Source: Vulcanisaeta distributa DSM 14429
GTDB taxonomy: Archaea; Thermoproteota; Thermoprotei; Thermoproteales; Thermocladiaceae
Direction of reading: 5' to 3'
NCBI RefSeq assembly: GCF_000148385.1
Contig: NC_014537.1
Location: forward strand, 2,190,001-2,222,000
Length of the DNA stretch: 32,000 nucleotides
Under the pieces are notes generated by a model. It saw nothing but the letters and a program-made list of their open reading frames with translations. It made no database searches and had not been told where the DNA came from. Positions within the stretch are counted from its first letter, which is position 1. Each line of letters opens with the position of its first letter. This document shows, in pieces, positions 3,376 through 26,983 of the stretch. The translations under genes and the position numbers were made by a program.

Positions 3376-4503
3376 ATGAAACTATACTGGTCACCTGTTG
3401 AGCTAGCCAGTAGATTAGCGAGAAGGGGCGTTAAGTATAACTTCGCCAGTGGCGCGCCTGACCCGGATTTATTACCATTTGATGAGTTGAGGAAATCCTT
3501 CGAGAGGGTTTATGAGGAGTATGGTAAGGCAATTATTGCGTATCCAGGTGCTGGTGGTTTAAGGGAGTTGAGGGTTGAGCTCTCGAGGTATGTTAATAGG
3601 GTTCTTGGTATAAACGCTAATTGGAGAGATGTAATAGTAACCGCAGGTGCTCAACACGCTATCAAATTATTATCGCAATTATTAATGAGGAGGAGAACCG
3701 TAGTCTATGTCGAAGACCCTACATTCGTTGAGACCGTGGCGCCCATGAAATTTCAGGGTGCTAAATTAATTGGTGTACCCATTGATAATGAGGGTATGAA
3801 CATACATGAATTAGAGAGGCTGGTTAAGATTCATGGACCTGGCATCGTATACACAGTGCCCAATTGCCATAACCCAACGGGTGTATCACTCAGTAGGGAT
3901 AGGAGGAAGCACCTAATCGAAATTGCCAGGGAGCATGAATTAACGATCATCGAGGATGACCCATACACATCACTTCACTCCAATGCGGAGCCTACCCTTA
4001 AATCCATGAGTGATGATGTTGTTTATGTTGGAACATTATCGAAGGTATTAGGTCCAGGCCTAAGGATTGGCTTTGTGATAACCAATGGTGCATTAAGGAA
4101 TAATCTAGAGAAGCTTGAGCAGCACGATTTCGCGGCATCAACACTCAATCAGTACCTGGTTTATGACCTATTAAGGAGGGGTGTTGCCGACGACGTTGTA
4201 AGGAGGGCACGTGAGTTATATCCAAGGAAGCTTAGGGAGCTTATTGAGGCACTGGATGAGTATTTACCTAATGCCTTAATCTATAGGCCCATCTGTGGGT
4301 TTTATGCATTCATAAACACTGGGGTAAATGCTTGGGAGTTGTTGAGGAGGAGTATTAGGCAGGGTGTGGTGTTTGTTCCTGGGGGTAAATTCTTCATTAG
4401 CGGGGCTAAGGAGAACACGGCTAGGCTTAGTATTGGCTCAATACGCATTGACCTAATAAGGGAGGGCGTAAAGACGCTGAGTAGTGTTATTATGGCTACT
4501 TAA
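3376..4503 (+). CDS. PLP-dependent aminotransferase, class I/II (2-aminoadipate/aromatic aminotransferase-like)
   Basis: Fold-type I pattern: PNCHNPTG, IIEDDPY, and the PLP-lysine region GTLSKVLGPGLRIGF. Confidence 0.8.
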   Translation: MKLYWSPVELASRLARRGVKYNFASGAPDPDLLPFDELRKSFERVYEEYGKAIIAYPGAGGLRELRVELSRYVNRVLGINANWRDVIVTAGAQHAIKLLSQLLMRRRTVVYVEDPTFVETVAPMKFQGAKLIGVPIDNEGMNIHELERLVKIHGPGIVYTVPNCHNPTGVSLSRDRRKHLIEIAREHELTIIEDDPYTSLHSNAEPTLKSMSDDVVYVGTLSKVLGPGLRIGFVITNGALRNNLEKLEQHDFAASTLNQYLVYDLLRRGVADDVVRRARELYPRKLRELIEALDEYLPNALIYRPICGFYAFINTGVNAWELLRRSIRQGVVFVPGGKFFISGAKENTARLSIGSIRIDLIREGVKTLSSVIMAT

Positions 4504-6385
4504 TGATTATGTAATCACCACTGCTAGATCCTCTATTACTTAATCCCTTAATTATTGACGCAATTATTATGAGAAGTGTCAACAAGCCAAATATTATCAA
4601 TAATGACTTAATACCCAGTGCCCCAAACGTCCAAACCCTAACATAGATGTTATCACCTGTTATATTTACTACGTAAACGTCACTTCCGTAAATAACCATA
4701 CCAATTGATGAATTAATAGGCACACAGTATTTACCTGGACCTACGTAGTATAAACTGCCAACATTTAATACGGCATTTGGTAATTCATTGTTTAGTAAGT
4801 CAACAGGCATGAAATTGATCATGTGTGGATTAATTACTAGGCTCCCTGGACTACTACCATTTATTGTTACTTCACGTTGATAGAGTAGCGATCCATTGCC
4901 GAGCAACTCCACCTGCACTTGACTGCCAATTATGGCATTGGGTATGCTTACCCACTGGTTATTACCATTTAATGGAATGGCGTATTGATCACCATCATAC
5001 TTAATTAATAATTCAAGATTTAAGTCTGGACATTCATTAGGTATTGATATGTTTAAGACGTAGTTAGAGAATATGGGGACCTTCAACGAGCTACCCTGGT
5101 AAATAGGGTTTGGGCCTAGGTTCATTAATTCACCATTCATTAATGCGTATATGTCGTAAGTACCTGGGTAAATACATGAGTCATTAGTGAATGGTATCAA
5201 CGTTCCATTAATGTTTAAGTATATCAGGGCATCCAATGAATTACCTGCTTCATCAATTATTGATACGTCTGAACGTGGGATTAAGGGGAGACTAACCGTG
5301 ATTTCTGACGTAGGTATTGAATTTAGGTAAATGCCTATGGTCTTTATACCGTTAATGGACACATACAATGCCCTAGTTAGTATGGGGTTTATCGTTAAGT
5401 TACTCGTTAAGCTCATAATTGAACCACTCCCCGTTGTTATGAATATGTTATTACACCTCAGCTCCTGCATTGATGTGCTAATTATGTTCACAGTAACTGG
5501 ATTAACCGACATATTGATCATGCAGTAGGGCGTGTATATTAGGTATGAAGTCCATGGCGTTATTCCTGGGATCCCTGGATTAGCCAATGTGCAGTTACTA
5601 TAGTGGTACTTAATCCATGGCGCGCCGGTGAGCATTATCATGGGATTTGACGAAACAGCTAATACTAGGTTCTGCGTATTGGTTATTGGTGCGTAATAAT
5701 ATGGCGTTATTACTATGTACGTCGTACCGTTAGCCGTAATATCTATATTGCTTGAGTATGTAATATACGTGGTTATTTCGGCATAAGTACTTATCGAGCC
5801 AATATTAACGTTCGAGTATTCCGTGCCTAACTCCGCCGTTAAGTAATTACCGACATTAGCCTCGGCGGGTAATATCGATACTAACTTAATAATTGAGAAC
5901 AGGTAATTTAACCCTGGGATTGATGGTATTGATATGTTCATGGAACCCTGAGTCAACGTATACGTAATACTAGAACCAGGTATTACCAAAGCCTCAAGTG
6001 GGTATGGACCATATGAACCAATACCAAGGTAAACGCCGTATACTGGTAATGAACAATTAACCTCCATACTAACGTACTTAGGACTATAATTAATGACGGG
6101 AACATTCAGTGATGAGCCATTGTACAACACCAAGGATGCAGATACTATTCCTAGGTTTGACAAAGGGTCAAGGTATGCATTAAATAATACGTTACCTCCC
6201 TGCGAGCAGTATTGATACATAGGTATTATTAATTGATTGCTTGTTATATTAATAATCTTAGTGTACGTATGATTATCATAGTAAATGTTAATGCCTATGT
6301 AATTAATGGTTACCTGCGCATAACTGAGAATGGGCAATACCAGGAATGCCGCAATAATAGCTATCCAAAGTACCTGCCTTATCAC
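4496..6385 (-). CDS. Secreted, C-terminally membrane-anchored, Asn/Ser/Thr/Tyr-rich surface (glyco)protein of unknown function
   Basis: N-terminal signal-like helix MIRQVLWIAIIAAFLVLPILSYA and C-terminal TM LLIIFGLLTLLIIIASII followed by a basic tail. I count about 17 N-x-S/T sequons by hand. Confidence 0.6.
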   Translation of the reverse strand: MIRQVLWIAIIAAFLVLPILSYAQVTINYIGINIYYDNHTYTKIINITSNQLIIPMYQYCSQGGNVLFNAYLDPLSNLGIVSASLVLYNGSSLNVPVINYSPKYVSMEVNCSLPVYGVYLGIGSYGPYPLEALVIPGSSITYTLTQGSMNISIPSIPGLNYLFSIIKLVSILPAEANVGNYLTAELGTEYSNVNIGSISTYAEITTYITYSSNIDITANGTTYIVITPYYYAPITNTQNLVLAVSSNPMIMLTGAPWIKYHYSNCTLANPGIPGITPWTSYLIYTPYCMINMSVNPVTVNIISTSMQELRCNNIFITTGSGSIMSLTSNLTINPILTRALYVSINGIKTIGIYLNSIPTSEITVSLPLIPRSDVSIIDEAGNSLDALIYLNINGTLIPFTNDSCIYPGTYDIYALMNGELMNLGPNPIYQGSSLKVPIFSNYVLNISIPNECPDLNLELLIKYDGDQYAIPLNGNNQWVSIPNAIIGSQVQVELLGNGSLLYQREVTINGSSPGSLVINPHMINFMPVDLLNNELPNAVLNVGSLYYVGPGKYCVPINSSIGMVIYGSDVYVVNITGDNIYVRVWTFGALGIKSLLIIFGLLTLLIIIASIIKGLSNRGSSSGDYIIIK

Positions 6386-8187: not shown

Positions 8188-8514
8188 TTACTTAGCCATG
8201 CTCTTCATCAGTTCCTCATACACCCCCATTATTAATTCATGCCTCCTCCTCACCTTTTTCTCCAGGTCATAGAGCTCAGTCCTCATTCTATAAAGCTCAA
8301 TCCTTAATCCATTAACCCTATTGACTATGTCCAACTCACCCGGTGATAATAGGTATTCGAGCTTTGCGTCTGGTTTTAGTGTTCTAAGTATTAGGTATAT
8401 GTCTAGCTTACTGAAACCCTTACTTCTTAACTCATTCACGATACTCCTTATGTCCTTAGCCTGTGAAATTGAAAGCATTAGAAACCACCCTCTGGAGATC
8501 ATTAATGAAACCAC
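8188..8514 (-). CDS. Hypothetical small helical protein. The start is uncertain (internal Met at 8478) and overlaps the 3' end of the upstream pilin-like ORF.
   Basis: ORF only. It has a charged helical C-terminus (ELYRMRTELYDLEKKVRRRHEL) and no motif I recognise. Confidence 0.4.
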   Translation of the reverse strand: MVSLMISRGWFLMLSISQAKDIRSIVNELRSKGFSKLDIYLILRTLKPDAKLEYLLSPGELDIVNRVNGLRIELYRMRTELYDLEKKVRRRHELIMGVYEELMKSMAK

Positions 8515-8692
8515 TCAATGCATTATTGACAGAACCCTGCAAATGCATGATACCCGTCACGGCATTACCAAATAACCCACTTATTAGTGATACCAAGGCC
8601 ACGAGTACGGCCATAGATATTGCTATGAGTAAGACCTCCTCAATGAATATATCCCCCCTATTCCTAACCCTCTCCGTTTTCATGCTCATCAA
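8456..8692 (-). CDS. Small archaeal type IV pilin-like protein with a class III signal peptide
   Basis: Basic N-terminus ending in RG, followed by DIFIEEVLLIAISMAVLVALV. This fits the QxSxExxxL-type class III signal pattern, with Glu at +5 and a hydrophobic helix. Confidence 0.6.
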   Translation of the reverse strand: MMSMKTERVRNRGDIFIEEVLLIAISMAVLVALVSLISGLFGNAVTGIMHLQGSVNNALSGFINDLQRVVSNAFNFTG

Positions 8693-8729
8693 TTAAGTAA
8701 TACTCAACTCGATATATAAGGCACTACGT

Positions 8730-9722
8730 CTATGTGATAACCCTGACACCCCTCCTGAAACCCAGCTTCTTAACTACGTATGGTATTAATATGGGTAGCA
8801 CCACAGTCGCATCCTCAAGAATGAATGCCTGCCTAGCGGTTGGCTTCACCTTACCCCATGTGATGGCCTCCTTCGGGCGAGCACCACTTAATGAACCATC
8901 CCACTCAACGGCCATTGTTATGTAAACCACGTAATCAAGCCCACCGGCAAACTGACTCCACCAAATCACGTGATGCTTAGATATGCCACCGCCAATGATT
9001 AATGCACCCAGGGACTTACTCGAGTAAACGATATCCATTAACTCATGCTCATCCTTAAGAACATCAACCCTAACCTGCCTACCCCCAGTCCTCGTTCTCT
9101 GCATCTCGTTATAAGTGAGTATTGCCGTGCCAAAGGCACCATCCACAAATCCAGGCACATAAATAGGCACCCCAGCCCTTGACGCCGCCCTTAGTATTGA
9201 GTAGTCATCGTCAATCCTCCTGCCCATTTCCCAAAGTAACTCCCTAACACCCCACTCCTCCTTAATTTTTGATAATTCTTCAAGTGAAGAGTGCACGAAC
9301 TTCTCGATTAATGGTCCATAGTGCTCCTTCCTGACAGCTACATTGCCAATCCTGTGAATACCGGCCTTGCTCATCTCGATGTCGTCAACATCAAAGTAAC
9401 TCTGGTAATACTTACCACCCATTGACTTGGCTATGTCATGGTCCAGAGTACCCGCTGTCGTTATTATGACATCCGCAAATCCCCTCTCAATGAACCTGGC
9501 TAACAAACCTCGGAGTCCCGTAGAAATCAGGTTCGCCGTGAATGATAGGAAGACCGTGGTGTTAGGATCATTGTACATGCTTAATAATACGTCTGCTGCC
9601 TCGGCTATGTACCTACCTTGAAACCCGCCGATTCGTTTATAGGCTTCTATCAGATCATCTATTGTGTTTATTCCAACATCTAAATCGTAAACCTCGCTTG
9701 ATATGAACGGTGAATTACTCAT
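8730..9722 (-). CDS. dys: Deoxyhypusine synthase
   Basis: DHS-typical blocks: LSFTANLISTGLRG, TTAGTLDHD, GGGISKHH and ITWGK. I prefer the ATG at 9722 over the TTG at 9734. Confidence 0.9.
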   Translation of the reverse strand: MSNSPFISSEVYDLDVGINTIDDLIEAYKRIGGFQGRYIAEAADVLLSMYNDPNTTVFLSFTANLISTGLRGLLARFIERGFADVIITTAGTLDHDIAKSMGGKYYQSYFDVDDIEMSKAGIHRIGNVAVRKEHYGPLIEKFVHSSLEELSKIKEEWGVRELLWEMGRRIDDDYSILRAASRAGVPIYVPGFVDGAFGTAILTYNEMQRTRTGGRQVRVDVLKDEHELMDIVYSSKSLGALIIGGGISKHHVIWWSQFAGGLDYVVYITMAVEWDGSLSGARPKEAITWGKVKPTARQAFILEDATVVLPILIPYVVKKLGFRRGVRVIT

Positions 9723-9766: not shown

Positions 9767-10525
9767 TTACTTAACGACCCTTACCTCCTTAATGAACCCC
9801 TGCTTCATTAACTCACCAACTATGTTCCTGATGCTCCTTATCGTTAATTGTGTCTTATTCGATATCTCCTCAATGGATCTATTACCATCAATTAGCTCGA
9901 GAATCTCCAGGTACTTCTCGTTAAGTTGAGTATTCTTCAATTTCTCCTCTAAACCCTCAATGGGTACTGGTATTTCAAGACCAGGTATTTTGTATAGGTA
10001 GATCTTATGGCTTCTCCACTCCTCATAGAGGTCCTCCACAATTAATGGCTTCCAACCAGGCACCTCAAAGTCGTGAGACACAACCCTAGTACTTGGCTTT
10101 AACTCACGTTCAAGCTTAGGCTTTATTCTCTCATTAACGCTTGTGAGTAGGTACATCGTAACCACATCAGCCTCAGATAAGTCCTCCTCGAAGAAGTTCC
10201 CATAAATCACGCGAACCCTATCCTCGAGCCCAAGGTCCCTAACCCTCCTGAGGGTTTGTTCATATAGATCCTTCCTAATTTCAATGCATGCAGCCTGGGC
10301 CCCAAATTCCCTGGCGGCCATTATGACGATCCTACCGTCGCCACAACCAAGGTCATAAACAACCTCATCCCTTTTAACATTAGCCAATTGGAGCATTCTC
10401 CTAACCACGACCTCTGGCGTAGGTACAAATGGGACATCGTAAGGCATATTGAAATACGGGAAGAAATCAGAGCTATAAATATCCTTCTCTAGTGTACTTT
10501 CATAATAATCGTCGAAGTCGCTCAC
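9767..10525 (-). CDS. Class I SAM-dependent methyltransferase resembling the crenarchaeal protein-lysine methyltransferase aKMT, fused to a C-terminal winged-helix domain
   Basis: VPFVPTPEVVVRRML, SAM motif I VYDLGCGDGRI, DVVTMYLL and TRVVSHDF. The C-terminal ~80 aa (LEILELIDGNRSIEEISNKTQLTIRSIRNIVGELMKQGFIKE) look like a wHTH. The GTG start overlaps the upstream stop (GTGA). Confidence 0.8.
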   Translation of the reverse strand: MSDFDDYYESTLEKDIYSSDFFPYFNMPYDVPFVPTPEVVVRRMLQLANVKRDEVVYDLGCGDGRIVIMAAREFGAQAACIEIRKDLYEQTLRRVRDLGLEDRVRVIYGNFFEEDLSEADVVTMYLLTSVNERIKPKLERELKPSTRVVSHDFEVPGWKPLIVEDLYEEWRSHKIYLYKIPGLEIPVPIEGLEEKLKNTQLNEKYLEILELIDGNRSIEEISNKTQLTIRSIRNIVGELMKQGFIKEVRVVK

Positions 10526-10983
10526 GAACCCTCATTACCAATCCTACTTATTATTTTTACCCTGATTCCGTCACTGCCATAATCAAGGTCGAGGTCAACA
10601 AAACCCCTCTTCTTGAGGATCTTAATCGTATCAATGAGTAATTGCCTTTCCTGGGGTGTTACTTTGGCTAGGGCATCGTTTAAGTCCTCAGAACTACTGA
10701 TTATACTAAGGTACTTCCTTATTAATACCGAGTTTAGATTCATTAGTGCTGGGTTACCCTCAAGTATTAACTCGCGAATTGCGGAATCCGTAATCGAGTA
10801 TATGCCCATTAATACGTCTGATAACGATACGCATTTAGTAATTACGTCATTTATCAATGACGATAATTCCGATAATTCAGGGTACTTAGTCTCCAGCCTA
10901 CTAATTAACATCCTTAATTCACTCATTTTTTCAATTAAGTCCATGTATACGCCGTGACTAGGAACAAAAATTAAACTAACCAC
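10522..10983 (-). CDS. Hypothetical helical protein, translationally coupled to the methyltransferase gene
   Basis: ORF only, with a 4-nt overlap onto the downstream gene. An internal Met near 10944 is an alternative start. Confidence 0.5.
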   Translation of the reverse strand: MVSLIFVPSHGVYMDLIEKMSELRMLISRLETKYPELSELSSLINDVITKCVSLSDVLMGIYSITDSAIRELILEGNPALMNLNSVLIRKYLSIISSSEDLNDALAKVTPQERQLLIDTIKILKKRGFVDLDLDYGSDGIRVKIISRIGNEGS

Positions 10984-11007
10984 TAAATAACAACGAAATA
11001 TAGCAAG

Positions 11008-12255
11008 TCACTGCAGAATCCTGACCAACCTACTTGATACCGATGGGTGTGAGGCGAAGACGCTCAACCTCCTACGCACTAATTCGTTGTGTAATTCCTT
11101 CCAGGTGACTCTAATTAACGCCATGGCAAGGCTTCTCCTAGGTACGAACTTAAGTGCATACTTATCCGCTGAGTACTCACTTAGCTTCATTACAGAGACT
11201 ATGCCGAATACTTCAAGGAGGATTGCGATTATGAGGATTGGTATTGCTGGTAGGCTCATTAATGGTATTATGTATGTTATTAACGCAATATTCACCAACT
11301 GAGCCAGTGATATTAGGAAGAGCGTTTTCGCGGAATCGCCGTGGATTATGTGACCAACCTCGTGCATTATTACGGCGGCTAATTCATCAGTATTTAAGCA
11401 CGATACAAGTCTTGAGGTTAAGATTATGTAATTGATGCCAGGTAATCCTATGGATGCGGCATTACATTGATTCACATTAACTAGGTAAATACCATAATTA
11501 CCCTTAATACCCAATTTCTTAATTAATGAGTTAACATCAATCTCCTCCTCATAGAAACTTTGCGGTCTCGTCCTAGCATCATTAACCAACGAAATTAGGA
11601 ACCTCCTGATCTCATTTAATGACCTCGTGTTTTCAATCCTAGATAAAAACCGCAGAGCCTCATTGAACCTCCTCTCCTCAAAATCACTATACTCTAAAAC
11701 GAACTTTATGATTCGTGAATCCCTTAAATCACCATGCCTTACCCTTAACTGAAGGATGTATGAGTAAATTATTGGTATGAGAAGTGGCGAGAGGAGCAGT
11801 ATTATTATTAGGTGTATTGATGGTATTACATTAATGATTCTCAACACGGCAACAACTATTGATAATGCCATGATTGAGATTAACATAAGCCCTATTAAAC
11901 CAATTGATGGTGAGTAGGACCTTGGCAGATCATTGACCCTATAAACCCTATTACCCCTCTGCAACAGAAGTATTGTTATTCTACGCATGCCGTCAGTACC
12001 CAGGTACCTTAGGACCAACGCATTTACGAGGTCCCTCATCTTACCGTGACCCTTAACCCTAACCTCATGGTTAATACTTAATTCTGCATCCCCATTACTC
12101 CCATGAACCATTAACCTGGCAACCTCGCCATTGATTTCCTTAGCCGCGTATGTTAACCCAGCAATCCTCAATAAATAATCCTCTACGTAATTAATTAGGG
12201 ATTGAGGATCTTTAATTAAATCACGGATTACCCGATATGTTTTTATTCCCACCAT
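11008..12255 (-). CDS. Membrane zinc metalloprotease, M48 (HtpX/Ste24-like) or M56-like family
   Basis: HEXXH motif in AAVIMHEVGHIIHGD flanked by several hydrophobic helices, plus an N-terminal ~120-aa soluble domain. Confidence 0.75.
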   Translation of the reverse strand: MVGIKTYRVIRDLIKDPQSLINYVEDYLLRIAGLTYAAKEINGEVARLMVHGSNGDAELSINHEVRVKGHGKMRDLVNALVLRYLGTDGMRRITILLLQRGNRVYRVNDLPRSYSPSIGLIGLMLISIMALSIVVAVLRIINVIPSIHLIIILLLSPLLIPIIYSYILQLRVRHGDLRDSRIIKFVLEYSDFEERRFNEALRFLSRIENTRSLNEIRRFLISLVNDARTRPQSFYEEEIDVNSLIKKLGIKGNYGIYLVNVNQCNAASIGLPGINYIILTSRLVSCLNTDELAAVIMHEVGHIIHGDSAKTLFLISLAQLVNIALITYIIPLMSLPAIPILIIAILLEVFGIVSVMKLSEYSADKYALKFVPRRSLAMALIRVTWKELHNELVRRRLSVFASHPSVSSRLVRILQ

Positions 12256-14245: not shown

Positions 14246-15841
14246 TCATCGCCATAATGAGGCTTTTAGGAATTGAAGCAGCTTCATAGGCCTCATCCTA
14301 GACATAAGCCACTTAGGCATGTACCTTCTATAACGGTAAAACCTCCCATCGAGTAGAACCGCGACCTTCTTATGCCTATCTAAATCCCTCAGCAATCTAC
14401 CGATTATTTGCGTTGTCGTTGATATTGCTGGGAATAGGTACGTGGTCGTAAATCCATTAATCCCAAGCCTTTTATAATAATGAGACTTTAGGAAACCCCA
14501 CTGACTATATTGAGGGAGTGGAAACCCAATGATCATGACCCCGACCAACTCCTGCTCAAGAAAGTTCACACCTTCACCAATTGGGTTTTGGGCATATGTT
14601 ATTACTAATGACTTGGTAACCCTGGCGCTCTCCTTAAATGTCCCAATGGCATTTACAGCCTCAGAGCTATTCCTAAGCACGAAGGTTGGTACTCCCCAAA
14701 CAGGTGGTGCGTATTGATTAACGTAGGAATCCAGATACTCAATACTTGGAAAGAAGATGGCTAAGCCACCGGTTGGTGGTGATGACTCAATGAAGACCTT
14801 AATACTTCTATTAACGATGTCCAGGTACTCCCTTAACAACCTATTTCTATGCGTGAACTCTACATCAACTATGGATAGAACGCTAAGGTTTTCTCGGTAT
14901 TCCCTTGGTAGGGAATCCACCGCCACGTAGTATGAAGGCTTAGAGTAAATACTCATGATGTAGGAAAACCTCCTACCAATAGATGCCGTCAGAAAAAGAG
15001 CTCTTTGTGACCTCATTATTAAGTCATGAATAGGTTTAAGCGAGAGACACCTCAGCCTAACAAGCTTACCATCATACGTGAATGCGCACAGGTCATTTCC
15101 AAAGTGCGTCAGTATTTCAATGACCTTATCATTAATTAATTCCGACCCCTTTAACAAATCATCAATATCAAATCTCCTCAAAACCACAACCTCCCTCTGC
15201 GGTGTATAATTACCCACCCTATCAAGTAACTTATTGGCTATGTCATTACCATGCGATGCCCATTGTCTCAACTCATCAATGCTTATACTCACTGACTCCT
15301 CAAGACCCGCAGCAACGTTGTGGAATTCGTCAATTATCACGAGAGGTTTGTTCCAGGTATTGATTATGTTCATTAACTTACCGTAAAGTTCGGGGCTCGA
15401 TAGGTATGCGTGGGTTGATATTACTATGGGTAGTTGATAGGCAAGAGCCTCATTAACCTCGTATGGGCATAAACCATCATTAAATAGGTCAAGGGAATTA
15501 CAGGTCATCACAGACGACGATACCTCAGTCTTCCTAACCCTACACTTACCACTCAACCTATATAGAAGACATTGCTTCGAGTTACGTGCATTAAATGGGC
15601 ACATTGATTCCCTGCCAAGGAATAATGATACCCTATCCCTAATACCAACTTGTCTCGTGAATTCACAAAGCTGTAGCGCCTCTGCTCTAGACCTAGTTAT
15701 TATTAGTGCCTGGCCGCCATCGTTGATCCACCTCTTGGCTATCGTCACTGCTATCCTGGATTTACCAAAACCGGGGTATGCATTTAGTAGGATTACGTCT
15801 TTTTCCCTCAGCATTGAGTATACGTAATCGGCAATATCCAT
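14246..15841 (-). CDS. XPD/Rad3-family (DinG-like) superfamily-2 helicase with an FeS-cluster domain; divergent paralog
   Basis: Walker A AYPGFGKS, DEAH-like box IIDEFHN, and Cys-rich insert CPF..QCLL..GKCRV..TCNS..GLCPYE between motifs I and II. C-terminal motifs FFPS, GEGVNF, IIGFPLPQ and QIIGRLLRD parallel archaeal XPD. Confidence 0.8.
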   Translation of the reverse strand: MDIADYVYSMLREKDVILLNAYPGFGKSRIAVTIAKRWINDGGQALIITRSRAEALQLCEFTRQVGIRDRVSLFLGRESMCPFNARNSKQCLLYRLSGKCRVRKTEVSSSVMTCNSLDLFNDGLCPYEVNEALAYQLPIVISTHAYLSSPELYGKLMNIINTWNKPLVIIDEFHNVAAGLEESVSISIDELRQWASHGNDIANKLLDRVGNYTPQREVVVLRRFDIDDLLKGSELINDKVIEILTHFGNDLCAFTYDGKLVRLRCLSLKPIHDLIMRSQRALFLTASIGRRFSYIMSIYSKPSYYVAVDSLPREYRENLSVLSIVDVEFTHRNRLLREYLDIVNRSIKVFIESSPPTGGLAIFFPSIEYLDSYVNQYAPPVWGVPTFVLRNSSEAVNAIGTFKESARVTKSLVITYAQNPIGEGVNFLEQELVGVMIIGFPLPQYSQWGFLKSHYYKRLGINGFTTTYLFPAISTTTQIIGRLLRDLDRHKKVAVLLDGRFYRYRRYMPKWLMSRMRPMKLLQFLKASLWR

Positions 15842-19673: not shown

Positions 19674-20600
19674 GTGAGCATAAGCACAGGGCTTGAATTT
19701 GCAGCTGAGAATGTACTACCAATAATAAGGAGCTTAATTGCCAAGAGATTACTCGAGAGTGGGTATAGCCAACTCAGGGTGGCTAAGATACTCGGTGTAA
19801 CACAGCCGGCGGTTAATAGGTACGTGAGTAGGGATTACGATGAATTACTCAGTAAGGCCGAGTCACTGGGTATAAACAGGGATTGGGTGCTCGAGGTTGT
19901 CAAAAACGTTGTAGAGCTGGTGTTAAGTAGTAGGGAGTATGAGGCCCTCGAATACTTAACCAATGCCGTAATAATGGAGCTGGGCTCCTTAAGGCTATGC
20001 GATGCCCATAGAAGGCTCGTCCCATCATTACCCACGAATTGTAACGTATGCTCAGTGCTGATTACGGGCATTTCAGATTCAATAATTAAGAATGTGGAGA
20101 GGGCATTATCGATCCTTGAGGCTCATCCCGAAATTCAGGTTGTAATACCGAGGGTATTAATGAACATTGTTGAGGCAAAGCCCGGCGCGGTAACGGAGGA
20201 TGACGTTGTTGGCGTTCCTGGCAGGATTGACGCCCATGACGGGAGGGTCATCGTAGGCTCAAGACCAACCTATGGTGGGAGTAAGCACCTGGGCAGGTTA
20301 ATTATTAAGTGCATGAACGTGAACCCGAGGTATAGGTCCGTGGCGAGCATTAAGTACGATGAGAAGGTGGAGAATGCGCTTAGGGGGTTGGGAATTCATT
20401 ACGTGAAGGTGGGTCCTCATGAAAGTCCCAATGAGGATGAGGTCATTAGTGCTGTGGCTAATTCACTAATTAAAGACCCAACGCTCGAGGTTGTGATTGA
20501 CCTGGGTGGCTATGCCCTGGAGCCCGTCACCTACGTGTTTGGTCTTGACGCAATGGATGTGGCATTGAAGATTGTGAGGATAGCCTCAAGGATAACCTAA
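19674..20600 (+). CDS. HTH plus ThiN-like domain protein (ThiR-type thiamine-responsive regulator candidate, or thiamine-phosphate synthase ThiN fusion)
   Basis: N-terminal HTH ESGYSQLRVAKILGVTQPAVNRYV. The C-terminal ThiN-like blocks are MNIVEA, VVGVPGRI, YGGSKHLGR, RSVASIKYDE, and VIDLGGYALEPVTYVFG. Confidence 0.65.
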   Translation: MSISTGLEFAAENVLPIIRSLIAKRLLESGYSQLRVAKILGVTQPAVNRYVSRDYDELLSKAESLGINRDWVLEVVKNVVELVLSSREYEALEYLTNAVIMELGSLRLCDAHRRLVPSLPTNCNVCSVLITGISDSIIKNVERALSILEAHPEIQVVIPRVLMNIVEAKPGAVTEDDVVGVPGRIDAHDGRVIVGSRPTYGGSKHLGRLIIKCMNVNPRYRSVASIKYDEKVENALRGLGIHYVKVGPHESPNEDEVISAVANSLIKDPTLEVVIDLGGYALEPVTYVFGLDAMDVALKIVRIASRIT

Positions 20601-22976: not shown

Positions 22977-23954
22977 TTAGAATTGGTGTTGTGGTTTTAG
23001 TTTTATGCCTATGCCCGGTGTTTCTGGTACGTAGACCTTACCATTCTTGGCATACATTATTGACTTTGGCTCATCGAATACATCGAATATTGCACTCCTC
23101 AGTGGGTTGTCTGGTGCCGTGTACTCAATCCATAGGGTGCCTGGCTTTGCGGCAACCAGGTGTGCACTGACTATTGGCATTAGGTGTGGTGAGACTGGTA
23201 TCCCATAGGCCCTAGCCAACGCCCAAACCCTAAGCCACTCCGTAATACCACCAACATGACCAACATCAGGCTGGACAAAATCCACAGCCTCACTCTCGAG
23301 GAGTAATTTAAAGTCATAGACCGTGTGATGCTGCTCACCGGCGGCAATGGGTATTCCACAAACCCTCCTCAACCTCCTGTAACCCTCCAGGTTGTCTGGG
23401 TGCACGGGCTCCTCAATCCAGAATAATTCATACCTCTCCCACCTCCTGCACATCCTGGTTGCTAGGTTTAGGTCGTAGGTGCCGTTTAGGTCAACCATCA
23501 ACTTAACATCAGGCCCAACGGCCTCCCTAACGGCTTTAATACGCTCGGTAGCCTCCTCAGGACTAACCGCCGTTAAGGAGCCCCTAATCTTAACAGCATC
23601 AAAGCCTTGTTTAACATACTCAAGGGCCTTGGCCGCAAGCTCCCTAGGTGGTAGTTGATGGGCTGTGTTTGCGTATGTCGGGACCTCACTCCTATAACCA
23701 CCGAGTAATCTCCAAAGGGGCTTATTAACCTCCTTAGCCAGTAGGTCCCAAATGGCTATGTCAACACCACTAATTGCGTGAATCACAAAACCCCTCCTAC
23801 CCCACCTCGTGAGTCTTTGGAATAACTCATCCCAAATCGCCTCGTACTCCGTGGTATCCCTACCAACAACAAACCTGGCAATAACCCTCCTAATGAACTC
23901 AGCGAGTAGGTCTGAGAAGTACACACCCTCCTTAATGTGGTGGTAATCAGTCAC
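22977..23954 (-). CDS. Enolase-superfamily enzyme (mandelate racemase/muconate lactonizing, sugar-acid dehydratase-like). The N-terminal capping domain looks truncated or frameshifted, so this is a likely pseudogene.
   Basis: AISGVDIAIWDLLAKEVNKPLWRLLGG, metal ligands in MVDLNG, FWIEEP and AAGEQ. The listed ORF begins with GTG about 40 aa short of typical family members. The upstream sequence continues in-frame only to the TAA at 23985-23987, then resumes in another frame up to the ATG at 24046. Confidence 0.75.
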   Translation of the reverse strand: MTDYHHIKEGVYFSDLLAEFIRRVIARFVVGRDTTEYEAIWDELFQRLTRWGRRGFVIHAISGVDIAIWDLLAKEVNKPLWRLLGGYRSEVPTYANTAHQLPPRELAAKALEYVKQGFDAVKIRGSLTAVSPEEATERIKAVREAVGPDVKLMVDLNGTYDLNLATRMCRRWERYELFWIEEPVHPDNLEGYRRLRRVCGIPIAAGEQHHTVYDFKLLLESEAVDFVQPDVGHVGGITEWLRVWALARAYGIPVSPHLMPIVSAHLVAAKPGTLWIEYTAPDNPLRSAIFDVFDEPKSIMYAKNGKVYVPETPGIGIKLKPQHQF

Positions 23955-23993
23955 ATAACCAATACCCTCACTACTCTCGGTACATTAATCTCT

Positions 23994-24010
23994 CTAGTGA
24001 CGGTCACTAG
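23994..24010. repeat. Perfect 17-bp palindrome CTAGTGAC-G-GTCACTAG
   Basis: Read directly: 8-bp arms with a 1-nt centre, overlapping the left 15-nt boundary repeat. Confidence 0.9.
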
Positions 24011-24106
24011 CACCGGCAATTGAGCCTCAACGGTTTGCATCGCCATAGTGGTGCAATAGGTGCTGTGGAGTGGTTTTTGAAGGTTTGTCCATTGAGGTGG
24101 AAGCCA

Positions 24107-24188
24107 TTTTAATCATTGTAATTATTAATTGAACATTGTTTCGTTGTGCCTAGGTTTGGGAGAATTTTGTTCTATGTTTGTTTCGTTG
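24107..24188 (+). repeat. Copy 1 of an 82-bp G+T-rich direct repeat beginning with the TATA-like TTTTAATC
   Basis: Manual alignment with 24239-24320 gives roughly 80 percent identity and a 132-bp period. Confidence 0.8.
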
Positions 24189-24238
24189 TTTGTGTGTATG
24201 CGTTGTGTTTCTTCCTGAATCCCAATTTTTCACAATCT

Positions 24239-24320
24239 TTTTAATCACTGTGATTATTTATTGGGTGTTGTTTTGTTGCGCCTGGGTTTGGGGAATTTTG
24301 TTTATTGGTTTTGTTTGCTG
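24239..24320 (+). repeat. Copy 2 of the 82-bp G+T-rich direct repeat; contains the palindrome AATCAC-T-GTGATT (24243-24255)
   Basis: Manual alignment with 24107-24188. Confidence 0.8.
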
Positions 24321-24523
24321 TAGGTGGCGAGGTACTGCGCCGGCTCCTTGAGGAGTTTGCCAGCCTCGCTACTCAGTGTGTCGGAGACCCTCATGTTCCT
24401 CGACCTCGATGCGACGTAGGTCATCGCCTGGAACAGCGCCTCCGCATTCATTCCAAACTCCTCGACGTAGTCACTGAGCGCGGCATCCAGCTTTAAGGCA
24501 TACTTAAGACCAACCTTCCCCCA
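24302..24523 (-). pseudogene. Decayed small ribbon-helix-helix (CopG-like) ORF
   Basis: The stop-to-stop frame reads GLKYALKLDAALSDYVEEFGMNAEALFQAMTYVASRS..., a strand-helix-helix pattern. No canonical start precedes the strand. An ATGATG sits one frame off at 24527-24522, and the first in-frame ATG is at 24451. Confidence 0.35.
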
Positions 24524-24536
24524 TCATCGCCCCTAG

Positions 24537-24824
24537 CCAGTTCCTGACCATCGCTTTGGGACGTTTGGAGGGAACTGGTTAAGAGGGAAAAATGCTGTCG
24601 CGTGCAGGGACGAGGATGGTGCAAGATACCGCATTATTAAGTCGAGGGACAACGAGGGGAACATAGCATACGCATTGATCGACCATGACGACGAGGTCGC
24701 AGTCGTATGTAGGTATTACCCCGACGAGTTACAACTCCTCTACTGCGGCTATGCACTGAGGGCCGCGGTTCACTTCATGAACATTAATGGCGAGGTCATT
24801 GAAGAGGACCAAGCACACCGCTGA
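24537..24824 (+). pseudogene. Start-less 95-codon ORF of unknown function (possible gene remnant)
   Basis: The stop-to-stop frame reads ...NAVACRDEDGARYRIIKSRDNEGNIAYALIDHDDEVAVVCRYYPDELQLLYCGYALRAAVHFMNINGEVIEEDQAHR. The first ATG/GTG/TTG in frame is the TTG at 24675. Confidence 0.3.
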
Positions 24825-24859
24825 ACCCCACTTTCCAATGCCCTATTAAAATTACCGCA

Positions 24860-24868
24860 TTTTTAAAG
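24860..24868 (+). promoter_or_regulatory. TATA-like box TTTTTAAAG centred about 26 nt upstream of the 24890 ATG (leaderless-type promoter)
   Basis: The sequence and its spacing are typical of crenarchaeal leaderless promoters. Confidence 0.45.
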
Positions 24869-24889
24869 ACATGCGCTGGGAAAGTATCG

Positions 24890-26443
24890 ATGAGCGAGAA
24901 GGACCTGGTAATGGAGTCGGAAATCAAGTCCGTGGGCCCTGGGCAATTGAAAGTATGCTGGGGCGTCAAGGTCGAGGGCGGTAAGCGATTAGGGTGCGGT
25001 GAGGAGGTCAGTGATCCGAAAATAATCGGGGAAGTGATGAAGTTGATTAACGAGTTCATGAGGAGGGTCGAGAGACGCAAGGATGTATTGTTGAGTGAGT
25101 CGAACACACCATTCGACAGGGCAATCAACGAACTAAGCAGCTGGCTGACGCTGGTGGAAACGAAGGTTAAGGAGATCAACGATGAAAACATCGTAAAGAT
25201 GAGGAGGGCAATGATAAACATTGGCGAGAAAATGCTCACGTTAGCAAAACAAGCTCGCGAGAAATGGCTGAAAACATACCGAAGAGAACTCGAGAAATTA
25301 ATCGAAAAGTTAAGGAGAAATGAAACGACAATAATTATAACAGGAGAACCTTCCAATAAAAACAAGAGCTTTACGGCACATCTGTATACGAAGCACCTAT
25401 CAATCAAAATAACTAGGGTCAGAGGAAGTAGCGTAACAATAAACATATCATTGGTTGGCTCTAGGGGTATTAGCGTCGTAACTCCCAGGTTGTTTGGTGA
25501 TGACGTGCTCAAGCCCATGCGTTATGGTTTGATCATGACCGATGGATCGATTGATAAAAGGGGCTACTTAGTGATGAACACCAACCAGCTTTGGCAGTCT
25601 GTGATGTGGATACTGACATGGCCTGGGAGAAATGGTATGCGTATACATGCCGTGGGTCTCAATGAGGCTGGTATCAATGTCATGTGGTCCTTAATGGCCG
25701 TCGACCATAGGAGTGAGTTCGTGAGTAAGGCTAAGGTCGCCGAGGAGGTTTCTAAGCTTAGTGATGAGGAGAAATTTCTAACGTTCCTATTGACTGCTAT
25801 TCTTGGAGATGGTAATATCGATATCATTAATAAGACAGTCAGGCTCGTGATTGGCGGTTCAAAGCATGAGTTGTGGAGGGGCATTATCGATAGGATGAGG
25901 GCCCTCGGCTTCAGGGATATTGATCAGAAAGTCGTTAAACACTATAGTATTAATAGCTCGAAGGCCGTCGAGCTCGCTAGGAAGTGGCTTAGCAACCCGA
26001 TGATTAAGGCTTTGGTTGAGGACTTGGCCCTGTTACCTGACGCCGAAAAACTCAGAAACATAATTGCACTGGCTAGTGCGAAGGTTAAGCCGATAGGTAG
26101 GTCGTCAGTTGAGGTCGCCGGCGTTAGGATGAGCGTGCACATTAATAATGAAGGATACGTGGAGTTAAGAATCAGGCGTAAAAGGCTTGAGGATGCCAGG
26201 GCAGTCCTGGAAAGACTAAGGAATGCGGGTTACAATGCCGAGTTGAGGGAGTATGGTGGGAGGTTCGAGGTCCACATAAGCCAGGACGAAATCAAGAGAC
26301 ACCTGGAGTTAGTTGTTAAGGTCTGTGAGGTGCTTAGGAGGATGCATGAGGAGGCAGTAGGTGAGGGCAACACCGAGAGAGCTTGGGCAACAGCCAAGGC
26401 AATGGCAAACCTAAACTGCCCCACCCAGGACCCACGGGCCTAA
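24890..26443 (+). CDS. 517-aa protein with a central two-motif LAGLIDADG-type (homing-endonuclease-like) core, an N-terminal charged coiled-coil region and a C-terminal extension
   Basis: Motif 1 [14 protein letters not shown] (aa 209-222, nt 25514-25555). Motif 2 [17 protein letters not shown] (aa 296-312, nt 25775-25825). D218 and D307 are 89 residues apart. Confidence 0.6.
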
Positions 26444-26484
26444 AATCCCTCTTTCCCAATTTTAATCTCGCTAGTGGGCCATAC

Positions 26485-26895
26485 TTGAGTGCCGTTATTA
26501 CGCGGACCCTACCACCAACCTTCTCCTTAATTCTAACGGCCCGTGGCTTTGGTGGGCCTGGTGTTGAGCATGCCGTTGATGGTATCATTAGAGTGGACCT
26601 TGATGAGATAGATGGTAAGTTGTATAGGTCAATAATTGTTTGGAAGATGAGGGATACTAAGATCTCGATGGTTAGGCATCCAATGGATATAACCGATGAG
26701 GGTGTCGTTATTTACTGGGACAAGTACCTAAAGTTAACAGCAACCTCAGCATCAATACAGCCGTTACCCAAGGAGGAAGTTGATGAAATGAGGAAGGCTA
26801 TTGAGGAAACGGAGAAAGCAACCAAAGAAGTTAAGGCCATAACGCGTGAAACTCATTTGCAGAACCAAAATCCGGAATCTCAAGACCAGCCCTAA
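26485..26895 (+). pseudogene. C-terminal remnant of a KaiC/RecA-superfamily ATPase (P-loop half missing)
   Basis: [65 protein letters not shown] matches only the C-terminal third of archaeal KaiC-like ATPases. No Walker A or B is present upstream. There is a possible TTG start at 26485. Confidence 0.6.
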
Positions 26896-26983
26896 AAACC
26901 CCAACCCTAACCTCCCTAATCCTCATAATTGATGCAATCCTTTCCCTCACTTATAAATAATATGAATATAACTTGTTCAACGC

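Follow-up and report, generated by a model that had tools for sequence, protein, structure and literature searches.

The stretch of DNA analysed here, 32,000 nucleotides of the chromosome of Vulcanisaeta distributa DSM 14429 (contig NC_014537.1; hereafter the window, with positions counted from its first letter), contains a free-standing gene whose product is predicted to fold around a LAGLIDADG endonuclease-type core, and which interrupts a host gene of the enolase superfamily. This open reading frame (ORF; 24890..26443, + strand), the longest at the locus, starts with ATG and encodes 517 amino acids (aa). The homolog search retrieved a V. distributa 'hypothetical protein' with 100% identity to its product. 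In the translation, the two LAGLIDADG motifs, of 14 and 17 residues, occupy positions 209-222 and 296-312, and their aspartates D218 (nt 25541-25543) and D307 (nt 25808-25810) are 89 residues apart, exactly as an earlier note made from the letters of this DNA had read them. The same note had credited the gene with its own TATA-like box. This element, TTTTTAAA, is located at 24860..24867 (+), 22 nt 5' of the ATG, a position that fits an archaeal TATA box of a leaderless mRNA, and it is presumably the promoter of the gene. A repeat search finds the promoter-like motif TACCGCATT(A/T)TTAA twice, at 24627-24640 and at 24853-24866. One copy precedes the family gene and the other lies about 35 nt before a small ORF (24675-24824, +), whose 49-aa product has no database match; this ORF and its motif could represent either a small co-expressed gene or a promoter duplication.

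The gene is part of an inserted block of 2,878 bp (23975..26852) that interrupts an MR_MLE gene (mandelate-racemase family) and replaces 32 nt of the intact allele. A metagenome scan anchored on the neighbouring glycosyltransferase gene recovered five syntenic Vulcanisaeta loci (L025, L026, L027, L029 and L030), with flanking proteins 70-98% identical. The distance between rpS27ae and MR_MLE is 173-182 bp in all five of them, against 3 kb in the window, and in L025 the MR_MLE gene was verified to be intact, coding for 367 aa. The intact form is taken to be ancestral, because it is found in five populations and encodes a complete N-terminal domain. Nucleotide homology to L025 ends at window position 26853 and restarts at 23974, and the candidate empty site in the intact gene (L025, ~9140-9215) consists of ...TTCGGGTCTGCCAATGA, CATGGTTGTCGTTAAAGTTATTGGTGAGGATG and GTAGTGAAGGG... 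in succession. To one side of the block remains the severed 5' end of MR_MLE, codons 1-26 (26849..26926, -), placed by tblastn of the L025 protein together with nucleotide alignment; to the other side lie codons 35-367 (22980..23978, -), recovered by tblastn with 95.8% identity over 333 aa. The ORF that stays open in this remainder (22977-23954, -) begins at an internal GTG and misses the first 34 codons, and the Pfam domain MR_MLE_N is covered from position 59 to 117 of 117 in the window, compared with 26-117 in the intact gene of L025. The same block is found in L021, the fully syntenic ortholog of another strain, which is also the closest relative (91%).

As the family gene is antisense to MR_MLE and eight host codons have been lost, neither RNA splicing nor protein splicing could restore the host product. 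No tRNA, rRNA or Rfam family was detected in the 32-kb window either, so that the gene stands outside any intron or intein, as had been claimed. The hallmarks of an insertion sequence or DNA transposon are likewise missing: the repeat search shows neither terminal inverted repeats nor flanking direct repeats at the block ends, the junction is a 32-nt deletion with no target duplication, and no transposase or integrase Pfam domain occurs in the block.

Besides the family gene, the block comprises a gene-free 5' part of about 915 bp, a 3' tail of about 95 nt (26444..26535, +) that is common to the paralog L022 and the ortholog L021, as judged from pairwise blastn extents and an alignment of the 3' ends, and the remnant of a KaiC-type ATPase (26536..26724, +), in which the Pfam scan recognises positions 167-230 of 231 of PF06745, that is, the last ~64 positions. 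The KaiC gene was rejected as a recurrent insertion target, since its remnant is present only at the window locus and its ortholog L021 and no KaiC 5' part lies upstream. The flanks of the gene within the block (23975-24889 and 26444-26852) hold only pseudo-ORFs and this remnant, in agreement with the earlier description of a decaying island that has no other intact gene. The unit of about 2.5 kb with small ORFs that was proposed at the same time is partly supported: the blocks measure 2.45-2.9 kb, but only the ORF and short flanks are conserved between copies. The 5' part also contains two T/G-rich direct repeats of 88 nt (24107..24326, +; 24107-24194 and 24239-24326), which are 73% identical and spaced by 132 nt, and L021 differs there by a 132-nt indel that corresponds to one repeat unit.

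Other observations concern the surroundings of the block. The truncated MR_MLE ORF (22977-23954, -) is under strong purifying selection between the two insertion-bearing strains, with a ratio of non-synonymous to synonymous divergence (dN/dS) of 0.049. Its expression may thus persist, with a promoter presumably supplied by the inserted DNA. Between window positions 19674 and 30968, synonymous divergence from L021 is ~0-0.03 on one side of the insertion (ThiN, RimK, UbiD) and 0.10-0.29 on the other (rpS27ae to Fe-ADH), a step that suggests a recombination breakpoint near the element. L025, in which the MR_MLE site is unoccupied, has between its glycosyltransferase and rpS27ae genes a 40-nt stretch (8438-8476) that matches window positions 26396-26435, at the 3' end of the family gene, by 87.5%; this stretch may be the footprint of a copy lost from a neighbouring site. 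In the same interval, a segment of about 2.6 kb that is absent from the window occurs in L026 (6358-9047), L027 (7892-10506), L029 (8197-10812) and L028 (900-3708). It was considered as a second family insertion and discarded, because it contains ordinary genes, for a membrane-anchored protein of about 600 aa, an ArsR-type helix-turn-helix protein and a small membrane protein, and no family member.

Searched alone, the window protein has no significant match in Pfam, NCBIfam or PDB sequence searches. Its AlphaFold2 model, built on the family alignment, has a mean predicted local distance difference test score (pLDDT) of 87.7 and a predicted template modelling score of 0.72. Residues 204-366 of the model form two successive alpha-beta-beta-alpha-beta-beta-alpha units, each of them opened by a motif helix, and the model helices 204-216 and 293-307 carry the motifs at their C-terminal ends. 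The motif-1 helix extends over residues 204-218 (25499..25543, +) and ends in D218, and the motif-2 helix over residues 293-307 (25766..25810, +), ending in D307. The complete two-lobed core is placed at residues 200-369 (25487..25996, +). All 50 PDB matches listed by Foldseek are LAGLIDADG proteins, including the Tli VMA intein endonuclease, E-DreI, I-AniI, the bI3 maturase, I-SceI, I-Tsp061I and many I-DmoI entries, and the top single match is WhiA (3hyi, E=5e-5). I-DmoI is aligned over 188-193 columns at probability 1.00, with a template modelling (TM) score of 0.52-0.57 normalised to I-DmoI; I-SceI, I-AniI and I-Tsp061I are also matched at probability 1.00 each. As I-DmoI is a two-lobed monomer of about the aligned length, both lobes superpose together, and this joint superposition on I-DmoI, I-SceI and I-AniI indicates indirectly that the lobes would be arranged as a pseudo-dimer.

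Sequence comparisons through other family members point in the same direction. The broader family profile matches I-Tsp061I (PDB 2dch, E=0.0015), with GDG aligned on GDG, and one member, P0090, reaches 27.9 bits with the Pfam model LAGLIDADG_3, whose gathering cut-off is 22.5 bits. P0090 also scores 23.2 bits with LAGLIDADG_WhiA, just at the cut-off of 23.2, and a few members show weak matches to this model. The comparison with LAGLIDADG models in Pfam that the earlier note had suggested is thus negative for the window protein itself and positive for P0090. When the family was compared by hhalign with the single I-DmoI sequence (identical to PDB 1b24_A), the core was not recovered (probability 4.6%). 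Altogether, the model, the structural matches, the family profile and P0090 support the single-chain, two-motif LAGLIDADG endonuclease-type fold that had been proposed, and in the suggested comparison with the I-DmoI and I-SceI types both lobes are superposed together.

The extensions on both sides of the core, which had been noticed in the translation, are recovered in the model. The N-terminal module (residues 1-199; 24890..25486, +), of about 200 residues and helical as described, consists of a beta-hairpin (21-39), three long helices (43-142) and a five-stranded sheet (147-198). It has no Pfam, PDB or NCBIfam match, and part of it can be aligned by hhalign between the Vulcanisaeta and Pyrobaculum clades. 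The C-terminal extension has about 150 residues instead of the ~130 first estimated. Modelled separately, residues 367-517 have a pLDDT of 80.9, and residues 401-470 (26090..26299, +) adopt a beta-beta-beta-alpha-beta-beta-alpha order, behind which a helical tail reaches residue 507. Residues 401-470 are probably a third LAGLIDADG-like half-domain, devoid of the motif: Foldseek matches this model to I-CreI monomers (probability 0.90-0.98) and I-Tsp061I (0.99), with weak E-values of ~1e-2, a TM of ~0.34 and ribosome recycling factor interleaved among the matches, and hhalign relates the second half of the core to the C-terminal domain with a probability of 33-38%. No helix-turn-helix was found in the window protein, either by the Pfam scan or by the structure search with the C-terminal model. 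A possible four-cysteine zinc site (C23, C36, C478 and C509) was dismissed as not essential, since it is conserved in Vulcanisaeta only and not in the superfamily.

Residues of the active-site type are conserved. G213, T217, D218, F296, F299, D307 and G308 are among the columns with the highest conservation in an alignment of 21 close relatives, and variation at both aspartates, G213, G306 and G308 is nil or nearly nil, in these relatives as well as across 156 superfamily members. At 20-27% identity, relatives keep only D218, Q236, D307 and G308 invariant besides the start methionine. The 156 full-length members, with a median identity of 21% to the window protein, conserve D218, Q236 and G308 in 100% of cases, D307 and K387 in 99% and K280 in 92%, and the two aspartates are invariant in the three family alignments A1, A2 and A3. 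Such a pattern of acidic, glutamine and lysine residues is the one that characterised LAGLIDADG active sites display, and its conservation argues that catalysis, and not the scaffold alone, has probably been retained. Q236, located after strand beta-2 of lobe 1, would correspond to Q42 of I-DmoI, an equivalence drawn by manual comparison because hhalign failed against I-DmoI.

The gene belongs to a large family, and the copy-number census that had been advised finds it to be multi-copy. A first homolog search returned 27 proteins, all from Vulcanisaeta and none with a Pfam domain (0/27), and a genome scan of three species representatives located 8, 9 and 3 copies, which makes 20 loci, many of them at contig ends. 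The source chromosome has at least eight copies, at least five of which are close paralogs, with three divergent ones at 20-25% identity. An exhaustive profile search extended the family to 197 representatives at E<1e-3, the weakest coming from Pyrobaculum and Thermoproteaceae metagenome-assembled genomes, and a search seeded with members from these groups gave at least 1,472 clusters (Pyrobaculum, Thermoproteus and Thermoproteaceae). The 120 clusters listed have lengths of 349-599 aa, most of them ~400-530, and every named one is a 'hypothetical protein'. The Vulcanisaeta and Pyrobaculum-type clades are aligned by hhalign at 99.85% (E=6.8e-31) over 310 columns that span the N-terminal sheet, the core and the C-terminal domain; they therefore form one superfamily. 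No relatives were found on IMG/VR viral contigs, and neither the PADLOC defence-system models nor NCBIfam gave a match. Literature searches returned no description of such a family, nor of any multi-copy chromosomal free-standing LAGLIDADG family in archaea. The family thus appears to be undescribed so far, and its modelled architecture, an N-terminal module followed by two catalytic-type lobes and a probable third lobe, appears to be new. Many copies in draft genomes are split across frames, and they were not counted as pseudogenes because housekeeping genes of the same drafts are split too. Family genes are sometimes clustered: in L024, a truncated paralog (8314-9021, -) lies head-to-head about 1 kb upstream of the first copy (10001-11374, +), and L003 has two copies 2.4 kb apart (209-1615 and 4001-5492), one of which is just 25% identical to the window protein. 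An ORF of about 418 aa in L029 (463-1716, +), with GLRASD and GEIDGDGSV motifs and a weak match to the superfamily profile (E=1.8e-6 in a small search), hints at more distant branches.

A second gene-splitting insertion is found in L024, a Thermoproteaceae-type contig, where a block of about 2.45 kb, with its family gene in antisense orientation, has parted a pirin gene between its Pirin and Pirin_C domains, both of which are complete; this block contains no integrase, transposase or att-like direct repeats. Other copies abut gene fragments: in L080 the C-terminal remnant of a helicase, in L081 a chimeric ATPase_2/PPS_PS fragment. Downstream of four copies lies a convergent tRNA gene (- strand): Asp-GTC in L002 (5518-5591), Asn-GTT in L019 (5530-5642) and Ser-CGA in L013 (5546-5648), all three located 30-40 nt past the stop codon and with unrelated outer flanks, and a fourth in the Thermoproteaceae-type L080 (5607-5697), 128 nt past the stop. 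By a rough estimate, with ~50 tRNA genes per ~2.3 Mb, this adjacency is far above chance. tRNA genes also adjoin the copies of L017 (5685-5783, +) and L014 (3655-3778, -), which are not among the four convergent ones, and several of the adjoining genes, given their lengths of 99-124 nt, probably have introns. Where the L024 block meets the N-terminal pirin fragment (~14520-14556, -), a 36-nt sequence resembles a tRNA T-arm, acceptor strand and CCA, although it is not called by ARAGORN or Rfam. It occupies the same relative position as the downstream tRNA genes of the other copies, and the moved blocks seem to carry along donor-flank DNA.

Between copies, DNA homology reaches 0-95 nt beyond the stop codon, where it ends in a conserved GC-rich terminus (...CTAAACTGCCCCGCCCAGGGCCCACGGGC), and on the other side about 40-100 nt upstream of the start; the rest of the blocks is unrelated DNA. 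In 14 Vulcanisaeta copies (L002, L003, L005, L009, L011-L019 and L022) the start is preceded by a sharply bounded leader of about 95 nt (TTTCAAT..TGCTTAAGCC..TTCAGCACT..AGTGAYTTATTAG), which is missing from the window copy and L021. This leader is non-coding and strongly conserved, though the paralogous proteins are only ~50% identical, and it could represent either a promoter with a regulator site or an element end. A small divergent ORF, absent at the window copy, lies 98-148 bp upstream of seven Vulcanisaeta copies (L005 309-581, L012 3623-3853, L013 3412-3864 and L017 3490-3903, all on the - strand, with remnants in L003, L015 and L018). It displays a CxC...CxH (SWIM-like) pattern, and its C-terminus is weakly similar to the N-terminal hairpin of the family protein. 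Genes of the PaREP1 family (PF05942) and a resolvase gene are found near some copies (L022 7702-7983, 12421-12930 and 12964-13497; L081 7778-8119), so that different repeat families co-locate in variable regions.

The copies evolve under constraint. The dN/dS of the family gene is 0.22-0.32 in ortholog and paralog comparisons and in both gene halves, as computed by segment, the whole-gene value of 0.29 being confounded by the mosaic structure. Neighbouring genes have values of 0.02-0.22, against 0.60 for the KaiC remnant. Values of 0.22-0.32 imply that the copies are kept as functional proteins. The mosaic structure comes from a patch spanning the promoter and the first ~197 codons (24840..25480, +), in which windowed identity between the window and L021 falls to 64-86%, compared with 95-100% elsewhere in the block. 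Of the 41 amino-acid differences between the window protein and its L021 ortholog, 34 are within residues 86-203, and in the N-terminal patch the window copy is closer to the paralog P0008 (75%) than to the ortholog P0002 (71%), which indicates that paralogs have exchanged their N-terminal modules through gene conversion.

We regard it as probable that the gene is selfish mobile DNA and that it represents a free-standing LAGLIDADG endonuclease-type gene family of Thermoproteales (Vulcanisaeta, Pyrobaculum and Thermoproteus). The idea of a selfish element, already raised in the earlier note, gains support from the comparison of the occupied and the empty MR_MLE site. The fold, the conserved residues, the number of copies, the occupied and empty site, the disruption of host genes, the lack of any other mobility gene, the ragged flanks, purifying selection and recombination are read most simply, when taken together, as those of a selfish break-and-copy gene. 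The model proposes that the protein would bind a long DNA site through its beta-sheet saddles and would use the two conserved aspartates to cut it, and that repair of the break from a gene-bearing copy would install the gene together with donor flanking DNA. Spread between genomes at an occupied locus would then be homing-like, with ectopic capture at new sites now and then, and the window copy, with MR_MLE split, would be the product of such an event. DNA cleavage by the protein, its target and its self-driven mobility are what we infer here.

Several points weigh against this reading. Classical homing leaves a precise insertion. The inserted blocks are ragged, with a KaiC fragment, a tRNA-like fragment and ~0.9 kb of unrelated 5' DNA, and 32 nt were deleted, so that general recombination or the uptake of foreign DNA could have moved them. 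The window copy is stably inherited in two strains, and the clean gene-splitting insertions documented are two only. Purifying selection in all paralogs examined is unusual for purely selfish endonuclease genes, and a host function would fit it too. Since the window protein has no LAGLIDADG profile match, it is assigned through its predicted structure, its conserved residues and transitive matches, and the packing of the motif helices is judged from superposition; cleavage activity and target site are predicted as well.

A more specific proposal goes further and is put forward tentatively: the gene would define a new class of autonomous archaeal element, a chromosomal multi-copy parasite whose sole gene is a three-lobed LAGLIDADG nuclease. 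Such an element, with no intron, intein, transposase or terminal repeats, would insert by break-and-copy into protein genes and the 3' flanks of tRNA genes, would carry donor flanks along, and would diversify its targeting by swaps of the N-terminal module.

The main rival to a selfish element is a family with a host function that is mobile by other means, that is, a domesticated LAGLIDADG family with a cellular role, as a WhiA-like regulator or as a nuclease of repair, recombination or defence, shuffled passively by recombination and horizontal transfer. We consider it unlikely, though much of what has been described would suit it: the purifying selection in all paralogs, the large extra domains, WhiA as best single PDB match, the stable locus of the two strains, the leader (here ~100 nt) whose strong conservation at 14 paralogs suggests regulated expression, and the exchange of N-terminal modules, as occurs in diversifying host families. 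A cellular role agrees less well with both catalytic-type aspartates being essentially invariant across the superfamily, with the lack of a helix-turn-helix and of any defence-system model match, and with a distribution restricted to one archaeal order, in many copies, and marked by presence or absence at a locus where the host gene is destroyed.

It is less probable still, and in our opinion improbable, that the gene is a passenger of another mobile element, such as an integrative element, a provirus or a non-autonomous transposon mobilised in trans. The adjacency of several copies to tRNA 3' ends, a classic integration target, the unrelated DNA inside the blocks and the resolvase and PaREP1 genes near one copy are what such a carrier would leave. 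Nevertheless, blocks of 2.45-2.9 kb lack integrase, transposase and att-like direct repeats, the gene itself is the only sequence common to the copies, and IMG/VR viral contigs hold no relatives.

The link to the PaREP2 (a/b) repeats of Pyrobaculum, which the earlier note had suggested, is not supported, and identity of the two families is very improbable. PaREP2a and PaREP2b are multi-copy genes of ~500 aa found in variable regions of Thermoproteales, and PaREP2b has been termed a putative transposon (PMC3558965). The family described here resembles them in its size, its copy number, its host order and its location in variable regions, and its superfamily has many Pyrobaculum members. It differs in the Pfam match itself: the PaRep2a and PaRep2b models match neither the window protein and its 46 aligned relatives (47 members) nor 10 more distant relatives that include Pyrobaculum and Thermoproteaceae proteins, and the precomputed Pfam annotation is empty for every homolog listed, while the same annotation detects PaREP1 on neighbouring genes and thereby serves as a positive control. 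Finally, a chance resemblance of the motifs in a protein of another fold has a negligible probability, for although the window protein alone lacks significant Pfam, NCBIfam and PDB sequence matches and hhalign fails with the single I-DmoI sequence, its confident model has the canonical topology, its structural matches are exclusively LAGLIDADG proteins, the motif residues are invariant, and family members provide matches at the profile level and above the Pfam threshold.

If the selfish-element reading is true, it would provide a first functional hypothesis for more than 1,000 'hypothetical proteins' of hyperthermophilic archaea. It would also mean that LAGLIDADG genes can persist in multiple free-standing copies without the intron or intein by which the host is normally shielded, which bears on the old question of how homing endonuclease genes survive after fixation, and the family would be recognised as a cause of gene disruption and genome plasticity in Thermoproteales. 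The proteins are also a diverse set of candidate heat-stable monomeric LAGLIDADG scaffolds for meganuclease engineering, which may offer an additional DNA-binding lobe and an N-terminal module that can be exchanged. As the occupied and the empty allele of one site are both in hand, the idea is directly testable.

Among the closest known systems are the LAGLIDADG enzymes encoded in rRNA introns of Crenarchaeota, one of which, I-Vdi141I, comes from Vulcanisaeta itself (PMC2602781). I-DmoI, I-Tsp061I and I-Vdi141I share with the window protein the monomeric two-motif fold and an acidic residue that ends each motif helix, and the hosts of I-DmoI-type enzymes are hyperthermophilic Thermoproteales and Desulfurococcales. 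However, these enzymes have ~180-220 aa and reside inside rRNA introns, once per site, whereas the window protein, at 517 aa, also comprises an N-terminal module and probably a third lobe, and its gene is free-standing, with a putative promoter of its own, antisense in a protein gene and present in at least eight copies per genome. Homing endonuclease genes of introns and inteins lie within a self-splicing intron, a tRNA or rRNA intron of archaea, or an intein, which the window gene does not.

WhiA is, like the window protein, a free-standing protein with a two-lobed LAGLIDADG scaffold and an extra domain. In WhiA the catalytic acidic residues have been lost, a helix-turn-helix is located at the C-terminus, and the gene is a conserved single-copy one. 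By contrast, the family described here shows neither the loss of acids, nor the C-terminal helix-turn-helix, nor the single-copy synteny of such regulators: its aspartates are invariant, no helix-turn-helix was found, and its genes are multi-copy and polymorphic. Free-standing genes with their own expression signals are also known from the seg and mob genes of phage T4 and from HO of yeast. The former, unlike the chromosomal LAGLIDADG family described here, code for GIY-YIG or HNH nucleases and belong to phage genomes, and HO is a single-copy, intein-derived and domesticated LAGLIDADG gene, unlike this multi-copy family. The mobility of free-standing homing endonuclease genes drags flanking DNA along by co-conversion, and this process would explain the KaiC and tRNA-like fragments that are carried in the blocks.

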